A stretch of DNA of 64,000 nucleotides, taken from assembly GCF_003018255.1 (NCBI RefSeq), contig NZ_CP027440.1. One strand, given 5' to 3'. Positions 1 to 63,205 of this stretch are shown here, in pieces. Under the pieces are notes generated by a model. That model worked only from the letters and a program-made list of their open reading frames with translations, was not told the DNA's origin and searched no databases. A program made the position numbers and the translations under genes. Every line of letters starts with the position of its first letter. Within the stretch, counting starts at the first letter, position 1. Source of the DNA: Escherichia coli (lineage in GTDB: Bacteria > Pseudomonadota > Gammaproteobacteria > Enterobacterales > Enterobacteriaceae).

Positions 1-912
1 ATCAACCGGATGATTGACCGACCTGGAGGGCGCTCGTATCGGGTTATTTTGCTCGGCCTGTTTGCTACTTTATTGCAGGCAAAAGGCACATTGCGACTGG
101 ATAAAGACGCCCGTCCATTGTTGCTGATCGAAGATCCAGAAACCCGTTTACACCCCATTATGCTTTCAGTTGCCTGGCATCTGTTGAATCTTCTGCCCTT
201 GCAGCGCATTGCCACCACCAACTCGGGTGAGTTACTTTCGTTAACGCCGGTAGAGCATGTTTGCCGACTGGTACGTGAGTCCTCGCGCGTTGCCGCCTGG
301 CGTCTGGGGCCGAGTGGCTTGAGTACCGAAGATAGCCGACGCATATCCTTTCACATTCGTTTTAACCGTCCGTCATCGCTGTTTGCTCGCTGCTGGCTGC
401 TGGTGGAAGGGGAAACGGAAACCTGGGTTATCAATGAACTGGCGCGTCAGTGCGGACATCATTTTGATGCCGAAGGAATCAAGGTCATTGAGTTTGCCCA
501 GTCCGGGCTAAAGCCACTGGTTAAATTTGCCCGCCGAATGGGGATTGAATGGCATGTACTGGTCGATGGCGATGAAGCAGGGAAGAAATATGCCGCTACG
601 GTACGCAGCCTGTTGAATAACGATCGGGAAGCCGAACGAGAACATTTAACGGCGTTACCGGCGCTGGATATGGAACATTTTATGTATCGCCAGGGATTTT
701 CCGATGTGTTCCACCGCGTGGCGCAAATCCCGGAAAATATACCGATGAATCTGCGCAAAGTTATCTCGAAAGCGATCCATCGCTCTTCCAAACCCGATCT
801 TGCCATTGAAGTGGCAATGGAGGCCGGACGTCGTGGTGTGGACTCCGTACCGACGCTGCTGAAAAAAATGTTCTCACGCGTGCTGTGGCTGGCGCGCGGT
901 CGCGCGGATTAA
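1..912 (+). CDS. ybjD: OLD-family (Toprim) ATP-dependent endonuclease-like protein YbjD, C-terminal part; 5' end lies outside the window
   Basis: Open frame from base 1 to stop at 912; Toprim-like LVEGETE and VLVDGDEAG motifs in translation; position upstream of ybjX/macA as in K-12. Confidence 0.8.
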   Translation: MNRMIDRPGGRSYRVILLGLFATLLQAKGTLRLDKDARPLLLIEDPETRLHPIMLSVAWHLLNLLPLQRIATTNSGELLSLTPVEHVCRLVRESSRVAAWRLGPSGLSTEDSRRISFHIRFNRPSSLFARCWLLVEGETETWVINELARQCGHHFDAEGIKVIEFAQSGLKPLVKFARRMGIEWHVLVDGDEAGKKYAATVRSLLNNDREAEREHLTALPALDMEHFMYRQGFSDVFHRVAQIPENIPMNLRKVISKAIHRSSKPDLAIEVAMEAGRRGVDSVPTLLKKMFSRVLWLARGRAD

Positions 913-1901
913 CCGCGAAACATCGTGGCCATTTGTGGCTGAATAGCGTCGAGCATCTCATAGCGCCGACGGTATTCAGCCCGTTTTTTACTGGCGATTT
1001 CGGCAATCTCTTTTCGTGCTATCTGTGCCGGAAGGCGGTAATGGCGTTCAGCATCACATACGCCGCCAACCGACTCCCAGAACGCGTTGTAATCGGCATG
1101 GATCTTGCCTTCTTTATCACGATAACGCAGGCTGCGGTAAATATGCGTTTCATTGCTGACGGCAATAATCTGCTCTACCTGCAAACGTTGGGCAAACAGA
1201 CAGGCCGCTTCCATCACAAGGCGTTTGGGAAATAGCCCGTGGCAGGCTTTCGTCGCATTCTGGATTTCCTGATGTGGAATTTCCCATTTTGCGCCTTGCA
1301 GTCCGCCAATAAACATTGTTCTTTTCCCCTTATATTCACACAGGGTAAACGTGATCTCTGCCAGAGGAATACCTTCGCTGTTGCGGAACAGGATTGTGCT
1401 GTCACCTTCTTTATCCATTGAGATCATCATGGTCAGCTCAAGCGTGAACTGCTCGCCGTTTTTGCCTTCCAGTTTAGCCAGTTGCAGCCCGGGGGTATTC
1501 AAATATAAGCTGAATTCTTCCGCCGACATACACCCGCGGAGTAACGCATAATGGTAACGTAACGCCTCCAGCAATTGCTTACGGCTAAGATTCGCCGCAA
1601 GGTAAGGGCGATGCAGACGCACAGGCAGTCGCGGCTGGCGCGTTAACAACACATTGAGATTGGGCCAGTGGGAAAGTTCGTTCATCCACTCAACGCTTAA
1701 ACGCGGCATAATCAACGAGCGCAGCAAAAATTTCTGGCGAAAACTACGGCGATGCCAGAATTTACCCGGCCGACACTGTCCACGTGCCAGGCTAAGAAAA
1801 AGTGACAGGCTGCTGAGAGATTCAGATGGCGTAAAGGTCCGTTCAGTTAGCTGCGACATATTCATGAAATCAATGGTTATACATGTCGTCGATTTCACCA
1901 T
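909..1901 (-). CDS. ybjX: VirK/DUF535-family protein YbjX
   Basis: 330-aa ORF with ATG at 1901; alternative in-frame ATGs at 1865/1859 possible; synteny with macA. Confidence 0.75.
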   Translation of the reverse strand: MVKSTTCITIDFMNMSQLTERTFTPSESLSSLSLFLSLARGQCRPGKFWHRRSFRQKFLLRSLIMPRLSVEWMNELSHWPNLNVLLTRQPRLPVRLHRPYLAANLSRKQLLEALRYHYALLRGCMSAEEFSLYLNTPGLQLAKLEGKNGEQFTLELTMMISMDKEGDSTILFRNSEGIPLAEITFTLCEYKGKRTMFIGGLQGAKWEIPHQEIQNATKACHGLFPKRLVMEAACLFAQRLQVEQIIAVSNETHIYRSLRYRDKEGKIHADYNAFWESVGGVCDAERHYRLPAQIARKEIAEIASKKRAEYRRRYEMLDAIQPQMATMFRG

Positions 1902-5693: not shown

Positions 5694-6014
5694 ATGGGTA
5701 AAACGAACGACTGGCTGGACTTTGATCAACTGGCGGAAGAAAAAGTTCGCGACGCGCTAAAACCGCCATCTATGTATAAAGTGATATTAGTCAATGATGA
5801 TTATACTCCGATGGAGTTTGTTATTGACGTGTTACAAAAATTCTTTTCTTATGATGTAGAACGTGCAACGCAATTGATGCTCGCTGTTCACTACCAGGGG
5901 AAGGCCATTTGCGGAGTCTTTACCGCTGAGGTTGCAGAAACCAAAGTGGCGATGGTGAACAAGTACGCGAGGGAGAATGAGCATCCATTGCTGTGTACGC
6001 TAGAAAAAGCCTGA
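5694..6014 (+). CDS. clpS: ClpA adaptor ClpS
   Basis: 106 aa; immediately upstream of clpA. Confidence 0.95.
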
Positions 6015-6044
6015 ATGCAGGCATAAAAATTGGGGGAGGTGCCT

Positions 6045-8321
6045 ATGCTCAATCAAGAACTGGAACTCAGTTTAAATATGGCTTTCGCCAGAGCGCGCGA
6101 GCACCGTCATGAGTTTATGACCGTCGAGCACTTGTTACTGGCGCTGCTCAGTAACCCATCTGCCCGGGAGGCGCTGGAAGCGTGCTCTGTGGATTTGGTT
6201 GCGCTCCGTCAGGAACTGGAAGCCTTTATTGAACAAACCACACCCGTTCTGCCTGCCAGTGAAGAGGAGCGCGACACACAGCCGACGCTGAGTTTTCAGC
6301 GTGTACTGCAACGTGCGGTCTTCCATGTCCAGTCCTCCGGTCGCAATGAGGTTACCGGTGCAAACGTTCTGGTCGCTATCTTTAGCGAACAGGAGTCGCA
6401 GGCGGCATATCTGTTGCGCAAACATGAAGTCAGCCGTCTCGATGTGGTGAACTTTATCTCTCATGGCACGCGTAAAGACGAGCCGACACAGTCTTCTGAT
6501 CCTGGCAGCCAGCCAAACAGCGAAGAACAAGCTGGTGGGGAGGAACGTATGGAGAATTTCACGACGAACCTGAATCAGCTTGCGCGAGTGGGCGGAATCG
6601 ACCCACTGATTGGTCGTGAGAAGGAGCTGGAGCGTGCTATTCAGGTTCTCTGCCGTCGCCGTAAAAACAACCCGCTGCTGGTGGGGGAATCTGGTGTCGG
6701 TAAAACCGCGATTGCGGAGGGGCTTGCATGGCGAATTGTTCAGGGCGATGTGCCGGAAGTGATGGCTGACTGTACGATTTACTCTCTCGATATCGGTTCT
6801 CTGTTAGCGGGCACAAAATATCGCGGCGACTTTGAAAAACGTTTTAAAGCGTTGCTCAAGCAGCTGGAGCAAGACACTAACAGCATCCTGTTTATTGATG
6901 AGATCCACACCATTATCGGTGCGGGTGCAGCGTCTGGTGGCCAGGTCGATGCAGCTAACCTGATCAAACCGTTGCTCTCCAGCGGTAAAATTCGCGTAAT
7001 TGGTTCGACAACCTATCAGGAGTTCAGCAACATTTTCGAGAAAGACCGTGCTCTGGCGCGTCGCTTCCAGAAAATTGATATTACTGAACCGTCAATCGAA
7101 GAAACTGTTCAAATCATCAATGGCCTGAAACCGAAGTATGAAGCGCACCACGACGTGCGTTATACCGCAAAAGCGGTGCGTGCAGCGGTAGAGCTGGCGG
7201 TGAAATACATTAACGATCGTCATCTGCCGGATAAAGCCATTGACGTTATCGACGAAGCGGGCGCTCGCGCACGCCTGATGCCGGTAAGCAAACGCAAGAA
7301 AACCGTTAATGTGGCGGATATTGAGTCCGTGGTGGCCCGTATTGCGCGCATTCCAGAGAAGAGTGTTTCGCAGAGTGACCGCGATACCCTGAAAAACCTC
7401 GGCGATCGCCTGAAAATGCTGGTCTTCGGTCAGGATAAAGCCATTGAGGCGCTGACTGAAGCCATTAAGATGGCGCGTGCAGGTTTAGGTCACGAACATA
7501 AACCGGTCGGTTCGTTCCTGTTTGCCGGTCCTACCGGGGTCGGGAAAACAGAGGTGACGGTACAGCTTTCGAAAGCGTTGGGCATTGAGCTTCTGCGCTT
7601 TGATATGTCCGAGTATATGGAACGCCATACCGTCAGCCGTCTGATTGGTGCGCCTCCGGGATACGTTGGTTTTGATCAGGGCGGTTTGCTGACTGATGCG
7701 GTCATCAAGCATCCACATGCGGTGCTGCTGCTGGACGAAATCGAGAAAGCGCACCCGGACGTGTTCAATATTCTGTTGCAGGTGATGGACAACGGTACGC
7801 TGACCGATAACAACGGACGCAAAGCGGACTTCCGTAACGTGGTATTGGTGATGACCACCAACGCTGGGGTACGAGAAACTGAGCGTAAATCGATTGGTCT
7901 TATCCACCAGGACAACAGTACCGATGCGATGGAAGAGATCAAGAAGATCTTTACGCCGGAGTTTCGTAACCGTCTCGACAACATTATCTGGTTCGATCAT
8001 CTCTCCACCGACGTGATCCATCAGGTAGTGGATAAATTCATCGTCGAGTTGCAGGTTCAGCTGGATCAGAAAGGTGTTTCTCTGGAAGTGAGCCAGGAAG
8101 CGCGTAACTGGCTGGCCGAGAAAGGTTACGACCGGGCAATGGGCGCACGTCCGATGGCGCGTGTCATCCAGGACAACCTGAAAAAACCGCTCGCCAACGA
8201 ACTGTTGTTTGGTTCGCTGGTGGACGGCGGTCAGGTGACGGTTGCGCTGGATAAAGAGAAAAATGAGCTGACTTATGGATTCCAGAGTGCACAAAAGCAC
8301 AAGGCGGAAGCAGCGCATTAA
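6045..8321 (+). CDS. clpA: ATP-dependent Clp protease ATP-binding subunit ClpA
   Basis: 758 aa from [10 protein letters not shown]; two AAA+ modules with Walker A GESGVGKT and GPTGVGKT. Confidence 0.95.
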
Positions 8322-8557: not shown

Positions 8558-8964
8558 AAATGCGAAAAAAAGCTCGTACTTTCGTACGAGCTCTTCTTTG
8601 AATATGGCGGTGAGGGGGGGATTGACTCGCTTCGCTCGCCCTGCGGGCAGCCCACTCACTGTGTTCGTGGTCTGTCCAACTGGCTGCGCCAGTTGTCGAA
8701 CCCCGGTCGGGGCTTCTCATCCCCCCTGGAGTGCAATATGCGAAAAAAAAGCTCGCACTTTCGTACGAGCTCTTCTTTGAATATGGCGGTGAGGGGGGGG
8801 ATTGACTCGCTTCGCTCGCCCTGCGGGCAGCCCACTCACTGTGTTCGTGGTCTGTCCAACTGGCTGCGCCAGTTGTCGAACCCCGGTCGGGGCTTCTCAT
8901 CCCCCCTGGAGTGCAATATGCGAAAAAAAAAGCTCGCACTTTCGTACGAGCTCTTCTTTGAATA
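8558..8964 (-). repeat. Tandem ~180-bp direct repeat (two full units plus a leading partial unit) downstream of serW; each unit = terminator hairpin + ~115-bp spacer + 19-20 nt copy of the tRNA-Ser 3' end
   Basis: Unit starts at 8605, 8784 and (true tRNA) 8965, periods 179 and 181; near-identical units differing by homopolymer length and one stem base. Confidence 0.85.
8923..8951 (-). terminator. Rho-independent terminator immediately 3' of serW (first of three repeated copies)
   Basis: Minus strand: gctcgtac-gaaa-gtgcgagc hairpin followed by 9 U; copies also at about 8565-8593 and 8744-8772. Confidence 0.8.
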
Positions 8965-9052
8965 TGGCGGTGAGGGGGGGATTCGAACCCCCGATACGTT
9001 GCCGTATACACACTTTCCAGGCGTGCTCCTTCAGCCACTCGGACACCTCACC
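8965..9052 (-). tRNA. serW: tRNA-Ser (GGA anticodon), 88 nt with long variable arm and encoded CCA
   Basis: Reverse complement reads GGTGAGGTGTCCGAGTGGCTGAAGGAGCACGCCTGGAAAGTGTGTATACGGCAACGTATCGGGGGTTCGAATCCCCCCCTCACCGCCA. Confidence 0.9.
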
Positions 9053-23863: not shown

Positions 23864-23883
23864 TACCCAATTTTTCTGAATCT

Positions 23884-23909
23884 AAAAAGCGCCTGCGGGC
23901 GCTTTTTTT
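23884..23909 (+). terminator. Rho-independent terminator downstream of serS
   Basis: agcgcc-tgcg-ggcgct hairpin followed by 7 T. Confidence 0.8.
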
Positions 23910-24101
23910 GTCTCCCTTTGATACCGAACAATAATTACTCCTCACTTACACGTAATACTACTTTCGAGTGAAAATCTACCTATCTCTTTGATTTTCAAAT
24001 TATTCGATGTATACAAGCCTATATAGCGAACTGCTATAGAAATAATTACACAATACGGTTTGTTACTGGAATCAATCGTGAGCAAGCTTGAGTGAGCCAT
24101 T

Positions 24102-31803: not shown

Positions 31804-31970
31804 TTATTGTGGTCGGTGACGCTGACTCTGGCAGATCTGACCCGTTTTTACATAATCGAGAAATGCGCGCAAGCCGCAGGACATATACTGGCGGTTTGGG
31901 TAATACATTTGGAAGCTGTGCTGTAAGGGCGTTAGAAATAGAGCTCTGAATTATTTATGCAGCGCGGAAT

Positions 31971-32006
31971 AAAAAAGCGGCAACTCAAAAAAGTTGCCGC
32001 TTTACG
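31971..32006. terminator. Bidirectional rho-independent terminator between convergent ycaM and pflA
   Basis: gcggcaact-caaaaa-agttgccgc hairpin flanked by A tract and T tract. Confidence 0.75.
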
Positions 32007-32012
32007 GGGAAA

Positions 32013-62490: not shown

Positions 62491-63205
62491 GTGCACAGAA
62501 AACCCCCAGCTAGGCTGGGGGTTCCGGAAAGCTTTCAGCTTTGAGCCAGTTATTAAAACCCCTTTTGATTTGTTAAAACACCTTGCGGTCTGGCAACTGC
62601 AAGTGTCAAACAAGAAATCAAAAGGGGGTCCCAATGGGGAACGAAAAGAGCTTAGCGCACACCCGATGGAACTGTAAATATCACATAGTTTTTGCGCCAA
62701 AATACCGAAGACAAGTGTTCTACAGAGAGAAGCGTAGAGCAATAGGCAGTATTTTGAGAAAGCTGTGTGAGTGGAAAAGCGTACGGATTCTTGAAGCTGA
62801 ATGCTGTGCAGATCATATCCATATGCTTGTGGAGATCCCGCCCAAAATGAGTGTATCCGGCTTTATGGGATATCTGAAAGGGAAAAGCAGTCTGATGCTT
62901 TACGAGCAGTTTGGTGATTTGAAATTCAAATACAGGAACAGAGAGTTCTGGTGCAGAGGGTACTACGTCGATACGGTGGGTAAGAACACGGCGAAGATAC
63001 AGGATTACATAAAGCACCAGCTTGAAGAGGATAAAATGGGAGAGCAGTTATCGATTCCCTATCCGGGCAGCCCGTTTACGGGCCGTAAGTAACGAAGTTG
63101 GATGCAAATGTCAGATCGTGTGCGCCTGTTAGGGCGCGGCTGGTAAGAGAGCCTTATAGGCGCATTTGAAAAACCTCCGGCTATGCCGGAGGATATTTAT
63201 TTTCC
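62490..63205 (+). mobile_element. IS200-family (IS200/IS605 superfamily) insertion sequence, ~710 bp; ends approximate (about +/-15 bp)
   Basis: Single Y1 HuH transposase ORF flanked by left-end hairpin cccccag-ctagg-ctggggg and right-end hairpin cctccggctatgccggagg; no tnpB; mukB-ldtD spacer is ~710 bp longer than recalled for K-12. Confidence 0.8.
62634..63092 (+). CDS. tnpA: IS200 Y1-type transposase TnpA
   Basis: 152 aa from MGNEKSLAHTRWNCKYHIVFAPKYRR; HuH-like HIHMLV motif; ORF-track TTG start at 62583 trimmed to ATG 62634. Confidence 0.85.
   Translation: MGNEKSLAHTRWNCKYHIVFAPKYRRQVFYREKRRAIGSILRKLCEWKSVRILEAECCADHIHMLVEIPPKMSVSGFMGYLKGKSSLMLYEQFGDLKFKYRNREFWCRGYYVDTVGKNTAKIQDYIKHQLEEDKMGEQLSIPYPGSPFTGRK

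Follow-up and report, generated by a model that had tools for sequence, protein, structure and literature searches.

The stretch of Escherichia coli DNA analysed here (contig NZ_CP027440.1; 64,000 nucleotides, hereafter the window) opens in the middle of a gene, which raises the question of what this gene encodes and whether its product serves phage defence or the ordinary business of the cell. On the plus strand, frame 1 runs without interruption from base 1 to the stop codon TAA at 910-912, and its translation matches the YbjD protein of E. coli strain 200164 (WP_000599804.1; 552 aa) with 100% identity over residues 250-552. In that strain, the best match, the full ybjD gene measures 1659 nt (552 aa); the window edge cuts it, leaving its first 747 nt, with the true start, upstream and outside. 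An ATG at base 10, proposed by the ORF finder, was rejected as the start of ybjD, since the window holds only residues 250-552 of the protein, making this an internal codon of an ORF that runs on upstream. That the window begins with the 3' part of ybjD (oldB; codons 250-552 plus TAA, positions 1-912, plus strand), a member of the OLD family, is virtually beyond doubt. The gene is annotated in E. coli genomes as 'ATP-dependent endonuclease'. Positions 1-2000 of the window are at least 99% identical in just 75 of 5,424 E. coli genomes and 95-99% identical in the remainder; the window therefore represents a less common allele group.

Three segments can be distinguished in the encoded part of the protein. 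The distal portion of an ABC-type ATPase domain occupies positions 1-378 (plus strand), covering profile positions 247-372 of Pfam DUF2813, to which the 303-aa window fragment matches with E=4.4e-56. The Toprim core (residues 376-440; positions 379-573, plus strand) is matched by Pfam OLD-like_TOPRIM (PF20469; E=1.6e-16, 61 bits for a cut-off of 23.2), is well conserved and shows the lowest dN within the gene. The nuclease C-terminal region (574-909, plus strand) is mostly helical by prediction and contains a conserved D472-x-E474 and S512-K513-P514. The half of the protein encoded upstream, outside the window, is an ABC/SMC-type ATPase, of which it forms the first lobe (Pfam AAA_15, 7.8e-12; DUF2813, 2e-160), and the ATPase and Toprim parts are fused in one ORF, not split between genes. 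An earlier note on this DNA had recognised the sequences LVEGETE and VLVDGDEAG as Toprim signatures, had assigned the gene to the OLD-type ATPase-nuclease family together with P2 Old and GajA, and had looked to the upstream DNA for an N-terminal ABC-ATPase half. Both signatures are present, that half does exist upstream with its Walker A motif, and the family assignment is borne out by Pfam, PADLOC, the family profile and Foldseek alike.

At the level of profile searches, the 303-aa fragment is matched in PADLOC by the GajA profile PDLC00094 (E=3.9e-66) and by the Old profile (4e-15), and the best PADLOC matches of YbjD are again GajA profiles (PDLC00094, 8e-80; PDLC00062, 1e-40). The scores of the window fragment lie well outside anything that chance would give. 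NCBIfam has no YbjD-specific model, and its P-loop matches, to RecF, PtuA and MADS3, all stayed below threshold. Weak matches were obtained in a single-sequence search of PDB sequences (best E=7.5e-5), and a profile of the YbjD family matched GajA (3e-20) and Thermus OLD (4e-20) near equally. We generated an AlphaFold2 model of YbjD from an alignment of 50 representatives (28-53% identity), with a mean pLDDT of 87 and a pTM of 0.86. Foldseek comparison of this model with the PDB found the OLD fold, matching GajA (E=1e-19), Thermus OLD (6p74; 1e-17) and also the retron-Eco8 OLD. Membership of the OLD family is secure because both Foldseek and the family profile match GajA and the Thermus scotoductus (Ts) OLD, and YbjD lies at a roughly equal distance from the three characterised OLD classes. 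The protein combines the elements expected of the family, namely an ATPase with Walker A and Walker B/D-loop motifs, a Toprim domain, a putative second metal site and the OLD fold.

Within the ATPase, the Walker A motif lies upstream of the window and reads G29-E-N-A-W-G34-K35-S36; K35 is invariant in 78 Enterobacteriaceae orthologues, and 49 of 50 diverse relatives have either K or R at this position. The Walker B motif with the catalytic glutamate, LLLIEDPE, is encoded at nt 118-141 (E293, D294, E296), and the D-loop LHP places His300 at nt 151-153. The whole segment from Walker B to the D-loop (nt 118-153, LLLIEDPETRLHP) aligns with LIEEPEISLH of GajA, and conservation of E293, E296 and H300 is 92% or higher. 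An LSDGQ at residues 200-204 was considered as the ABC signature motif and rejected as a chance match, its columns not being conserved in the family. The H-loop position is occupied by Asn323 (nt 220-222, within TTNSG) and not by histidine, as seen when TTNSGELL of YbjD is aligned with STHSPELL of GajA, which retains the histidine. Asparagine is found here in all 78 Enterobacteriaceae orthologues, and among the 50 diverse relatives 32 carry N, 9 H, 4 Y and 4 Q. YbjD therefore lacks the H-loop histidine of hydrolysis-competent ABC ATPases of the P2 Old and Ts OLD type, a residue that is not a defining trait of OLD proteins. In P2 Old the corresponding H332, where YbjD has Asn, is essential, and the H332A protein is inactive (PMC7049728).

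The nuclease part carries the residues of a predicted catalytic centre. LVEGETE spans residues 383-389 (nt 400-420), with EGETE at nt 406-420 contributing E385, E387 and E389, and VLVDGDEAG spans residues 435-443 (nt 556-582), with DGD at nt 565-573 contributing D438 and D440. Further downstream, D472-x-E474 is encoded at nt 667-675 and S512-K513-P514 at nt 787-795. Among the 50 relatives at 28-53% identity, E385, G386, E387, E389, G439, D440, D472, E474, K513 and P514 are invariant and D438 is kept in 49; in the 78 Enterobacteriaceae orthologues the Toprim motif residues are invariant together with E389, D472, E474 and K513. D472-x-E474 is a putative second metal site and K513 a putative catalytic lysine; in P2 OLD, the second-metal and basic residues are E402, D541, E543 and K550 (PMC7049728). 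By analogy with the P2, Ts and Bp (B. pseudomallei) OLD proteins (PMC6755086), and from a 2.3 Å superposition on 6nk8, E385/E389, D438/D440, D472/E474 and K513 would together make up a complete two-metal nuclease site.

The region following the Toprim core bears on the OLD class of the protein. In the AlphaFold2 model it forms four predicted helices (residues 473-490, 500-510, 513-527 and 534-547), and 164 residues of the model superpose on the Class 2 C-terminal region (6nk8, 2.3 Å), almost end to end. The GajA profiles of PADLOC span the whole C-terminal region of YbjD, whereas the Old profile ends near residue 473. In contrast to Ts OLD, which is reported to be without a C-terminal helical bundle and to use an arginine, YbjD has a predicted helical bundle and an invariant S-K-P. 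YbjD can thus be described, provisionally, as Class 1 by genomic context with a C-terminus that appears Class 2-like, the latter because of the 164-residue superposition and of the coverage by GajA and not Old profiles. This Class 2-like C-terminus, if the model is right, is a nuance that goes beyond the published literature.

In E. coli, ybjD is flanked by aqpZ, divergent upstream, and ybjX, convergent downstream, with macAB beyond. The neighbouring ybjX (VirK/YbjX, DUF535 E=5e-102; positions 909-1865, minus strand) is of interest as context only. The stop codons of ybjX and ybjD share the four bases TTAA (909-912), a palindrome, and there is no intergenic terminator. Downstream of ybjD, the sole terminator candidate is a weak hairpin within ybjX (968-985), and a terminator and promoter scan of positions 1-2100 gave counts not above those of shuffled sequence. 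In ExcludonFinder, ybjD and ybjX are listed as a convergent excludon with transcriptional overlap (PMC12288877). No SOS (LexA) box of the form CTGT-N8-ACAG, with up to one mismatch allowed, occurs in the 425 nt that separate aqpZ and ybjD in a near-identical strain. No UvrD/GajB-like helicase was found beside ybjD in the 86 genomic contexts inspected (E. coli, 80 other Enterobacteriaceae and five more distant relatives); the window has no Rfam match to a retron RNA, and the neighbours aqpZ, ybjX and macAB include no reverse transcriptase.

The gene is isolated, as is characteristic of Class 1, in E. coli and the 80 species as well as in Vibrio, Chitinilyticum, Motilimonas and Tatumella. A functional partnership with ybjX was considered and rejected: ybjX is missing beside ybjD in many genera and diverges far faster than ybjD. 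No ybjX adjoins ybjD in Klebsiella, Raoultella, Superficieibacter or others, and where ybjX occurs outside Escherichia it shows only 44-75% identity. Neither aqpZ nor ybjX is a partner, because ybjX has been lost in several genera and aqpZ is missing in Salmonella. The earlier note's picture of a single core gene with a convergent ybjX, no co-oriented partner and no evidence for a defence operon is the one that emerges from these comparisons, and the presence of the gene in the same context throughout E. coli makes it core and not accessory.

Elsewhere in the window, several features were recorded. A 180-nt tandem repeat (8560-8983; 2.4 copies, 97% matches) lies beside tRNA-Ser(GGA) (8965-9052, minus strand), whose end it overlaps at 8965-8983, and it also overlaps an Rfam RtT match at 8605-8741. 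At this site the window is about 118 nt longer than the collinear strain 200164 (183 versus 65 nt), which is consistent with a difference in repeat copy number. Matches at the Rfam gathering level identify two ordinary enterobacterial sRNAs, the Hfq-binding STnc490 (62501-62624, plus strand; 146 bits) and STnc130 (23877-24011, minus strand; 140 bits). The ExcludonFinder pair ycaM-ycaN, its strain taken as K-12, implies that ycaN lies beside ycaM (PMC12288877). In the interval from ycaM to pflA (about 31804-32012 in the window), all that is annotated in the collinear reference strain is a pseudogene remnant of 111 nt, and the lineage of the window seems to be without ycaN. Presumably, ycaK is likewise lacking from this lineage between ycaM and pflA.

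The distribution of ybjD is that of a fixed chromosomal gene. By megablast with positions 1-2000 of the window, it is present in 5424 of 5426 complete E. coli genomes, as a rule in one copy per genome. In 80 Enterobacteriaceae species from about 25 genera, it is always found in the slot hcp-lysO-aqpZ, ybjD, (ybjX), macAB. Its amino-acid identity across this set, which derives from a scan of one genome per species with a single protein and returned only relatives of at least 80% identity, is 80-99%, similar to that of the neighbours hcp, aqpZ and macB. All 81 ybjD copies are intact, with 550-552 codons and every motif residue invariant, including N323. Estimates of dN/dS relative to E. coli are 0.02-0.07 for ybjD, 0.03-0.06 for hcp and 0.02-0.07 for macB (Nei-Gojobori), rough values given that dS is saturated (>1.5) in most pairs. 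The ranking of dN within the gene is unaffected by this saturation, with 0.00-0.06 in the Toprim core, the lowest of the gene, versus 0.02-0.15 in the ATPase part. Purifying selection acts on ybjD as strongly as on the housekeeping genes around it, with the Toprim core under the tightest constraint.

Deeper taxa were reached through a representative library and cluster look-ups. In Tatumella sp. JGM118 (Erwiniaceae), a 45%-identical homologue (locus 6001-7611) lies between lysO and cspD-clpS-clpA-infA-aat; aqpZ, ybjX and macAB are all absent from this slot. The slot is older than the Enterobacteriaceae and than the present E. coli neighbours, since the Tatumella homologue shares it in their absence. 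The gene ybjD is a fixed, syntenic, vertically inherited core gene of the Enterobacteriaceae that reaches into the Erwiniaceae. For a housekeeping gene, its identity falls steeply, from at least 80% among Enterobacteriaceae to 45% for the Tatumella homologue. More distant members, in Vibrio, Motilimonas, Chitinilyticum, Necropsobacter and an acidobacterial MAG, stand solo among housekeeping genes at varied places, and no helicases, integrases or other defence genes were found in their neighbourhoods. This deeper distribution (Vibrio, Pasteurellaceae, a betaproteobacterium and the acidobacterial MAG) looks patchy, as for defence genes. The family also includes long proteins of 1,187-1,867 aa in Anaerobiospirillum and relatives (Succinivibrionaceae-type genomes), in which DUF2813 and Toprim begin at about residue 290-380 and several hundred barely Pfam-annotated residues follow the Toprim domain.

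Mobile elements were searched as well. Among 50,697 phage records no YbjD-type gene was found, the sole real match being P2 old, with 28% identity over a third of the protein. Plasmids gave 194 matching records, 180 of which are distant OLD homologues below 60% identity; the listed matches of at least 99% identity look like mislabelled chromosome, because they either have ybjX beside ybjD or are records of 0.7-4.9 Mb. Near-universal presence, fixed synteny, low dN/dS and absence from phages are not the traits of an accessory or mobile gene.

The position of ybjD in the OLD family is already known, having been reported by Schiltz et al. (2019) and Atahualpa et al. (2026). E. coli YbjD (b0876) was the query that seeded the census of the family, in which the E. 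coli and Salmonella copies were put in Class 1 as isolated genes (Schiltz et al. 2019, PMC6755086). More recently, ybjD was reported to be expressed, and the name oldB was proposed (Atahualpa et al., MicroPubl Biol, May 2026, PMC13261556). In that study, the Keio ybjD knockout was viable and, in plaque assays, neither more nor less susceptible to the phages tested. Overexpression assays applied the 68-phage BASEL panel, and arabinose-induced YbjD at a non-toxic dose lowered the plaquing of Bas18 and Bas20 and gave smaller plaques of Bas64-68. Deletion of the Toprim domain or mutation of its acidic residues left the anti-phage effect unaltered, whereas deletion of the ATPase domain abolished it; the K35A substitution retained the phage effect and raised toxicity. 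Unlike P2 Old, YbjD did not kill recBC(ts) cells (PMC13261556). The earlier note's description of the gene as poorly characterised therefore holds only for its native function; the gene has been recognised as an OLD homologue since at least 2019, when it was put in Class 1, and the phage challenge of a deletion mutant that the note envisaged has been published, with no phenotype for the knockout and an effect on induction only. Elsewhere, the aqpZ-ybjD intergenic region has been used as an insertion site, with no function given for ybjD, and ybjD appears in a table of expression changes under a cathelicidin-type peptide (value 1.31).

Comparison with characterised systems places YbjD among OLD proteins of rather different lifestyles. 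Ts OLD (6p74) and phage P2 Old (Class 1) share about 18-28% identity with it. P2 Old is prophage-borne and kills in a RecBC-linked manner, whereas YbjD is encoded by a fixed chromosomal gene, shows no such killing, and can dispense with its Toprim domain and Walker A lysine for the known phenotype. In the case of GajA of the Gabija system (Class 2; 8u7i, 8sm3; B. pseudomallei C-terminal region, 6nk8), GajB is adjacent; ybjD, in contrast, has no GajB and lies outside defence islands. The Vibrio cholerae OLD (Class 1, a nickase; PMC12392090) resembles YbjD as a stand-alone bacterial OLD with an anti-phage phenotype; however, it defends, needs its ATP-binding residues and belongs to a diversified accessory clade, whereas the YbjD knockout has no phage phenotype. 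Cran1, an archaeal OLD-family ATPase (PMC12796447), is chromosomal, conserved and apparently non-defensive like YbjD, a likeness drawn from its description, but it is essential and archaeal, and ybjD is dispensable in E. coli, as the Keio knockout demonstrates. The retron-Eco8 OLD (Class 3) works with a reverse transcriptase and ncRNA, neither of which lies beside ybjD, and PARIS (Class 4) has its ATPase and Toprim split between AriA and AriB, which are fused in YbjD.

These features suggest how the protein may work. ATP binding at the ABC head would, with somewhat better than even probability, act as a brake or sensor that gates activity, and not as a motor. This proposal draws on the H-loop asparagine, on the greater toxicity of K35A with the phage effect kept, and on the precedent of GajA, which is inhibited by ATP in the account cited in PMC13261556. 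The asparagine in YbjD is suggestive, not diagnostic, as GajA with a normal histidine is still ATP-gated and 9 of the 50 relatives keep the histidine. Once released, the Toprim site would, by analogy with Ts, Bp and P2 OLD and GajA and with a comparable degree of probability, carry out two-metal cleavage of nucleic acid, either DNA or RNA. The substrates of homologues are DNA for the Ts, Bp, GajA and Vc OLD proteins and tRNA for P2 Old (PMC12445682). It is the conservation of the nuclease that suggests its use in vivo.

As for the native role, we consider the chances evenly balanced that YbjD is a resident cellular factor for nucleic-acid surveillance or processing that needs its nuclease, and not a mobile defence module. 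This proposal is made because the nuclease is the most conserved part of the protein and is irrelevant to the overexpression phenotype, and because the knockout is null for phage; the anti-phage effect of overexpression may then be a property of the ATPase half and not the native function. Carried further, the YbjD clade might be a domesticated, vertically inherited OLD nuclease of the Enterobacterales with a housekeeping task in the processing or repair of DNA or RNA, kept in check by an ABC head that binds ATP but is impaired in its hydrolysis. YbjD would then be a bacterial counterpart of Cran1, and its anti-phage effect a side effect of the ATPase half. We put this fuller version forward tentatively, as a possibility.

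A different reading takes YbjD to be a true single-gene anti-phage system that, in the manner of the Class 1 proteins P2 Old and Vc OLD, senses infection and kills phage or cell, and that became fixed in the chromosome. The reduced plaquing of Bas18 and Bas20 and the shrunken plaques of Bas64-68 upon induction (PMC13261556) are what such a system might produce, the characterised bacterial members of the family are defence proteins, YbjD scores strongly against the GajA and Old profiles of PADLOC, the distribution of the gene at greater depth is patchy, and a fixed core gene may still be a defence gene. Against this, the Keio knockout is null for the phages tested in plaque assays, the overexpression effect persists when the Toprim domain or the Walker A lysine is removed, in contrast to P2 Old and Vc OLD, and RecBC-linked killing is absent. 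The gene itself is core, syntenic in 80 species, never pseudogenised, slow-evolving and absent from phages and real plasmids. DefenseFinder gives a frequency of 0.45% for Class 1 OLD; were ybjD counted, which almost all E. coli genomes contain, the figure would be far higher, and DefenseFinder evidently leaves it out. On balance, we regard a native defence role as doubtful.

That the Toprim half is a non-catalytic relic, leaving YbjD as only an ATPase or scaffold, would agree with the wild-type behaviour of the Toprim deletion and acidic-residue mutants in the available assays. The Toprim core is, however, the most constrained part of YbjD, and the metal-ligand residues and K513 are conserved from E. 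coli to relatives at 28% identity (D438 in 49 of 50), which makes a relic very unlikely. It is very unlikely that YbjD is an orphaned GajA, a Gabija remnant that has lost its GajB helicase: although GajA profiles are its top PADLOC matches and cover the whole C-terminal region, and GajA is its top structural match with a 164-residue alignment to the Class 2 C-terminal region, no UvrD/GajB-like gene flanks it in E. coli, 80 other Enterobacteriaceae and five distant relatives, and a remnant is not expected to stay intact with every catalytic residue invariant family-wide.

The preferred account, that of a stand-alone OLD-family ybjD with a presumed ATP gating and a presumed cellular role, is as a whole quite probable in our judgement. 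As the outcome of a scan of this DNA, the identification of ybjD is correct but ordinary. The comparisons made here bring out a tension: the only known phenotype is independent of the nuclease, although no other part of the gene is as conserved, and the gene is kept intact at one locus family-wide. A nuclease that is conserved but not needed for the known phenotype argues for a native function other than the effects seen so far. If that function proves to be cellular, it would add to the notion that OLD proteins are more than immune effectors.
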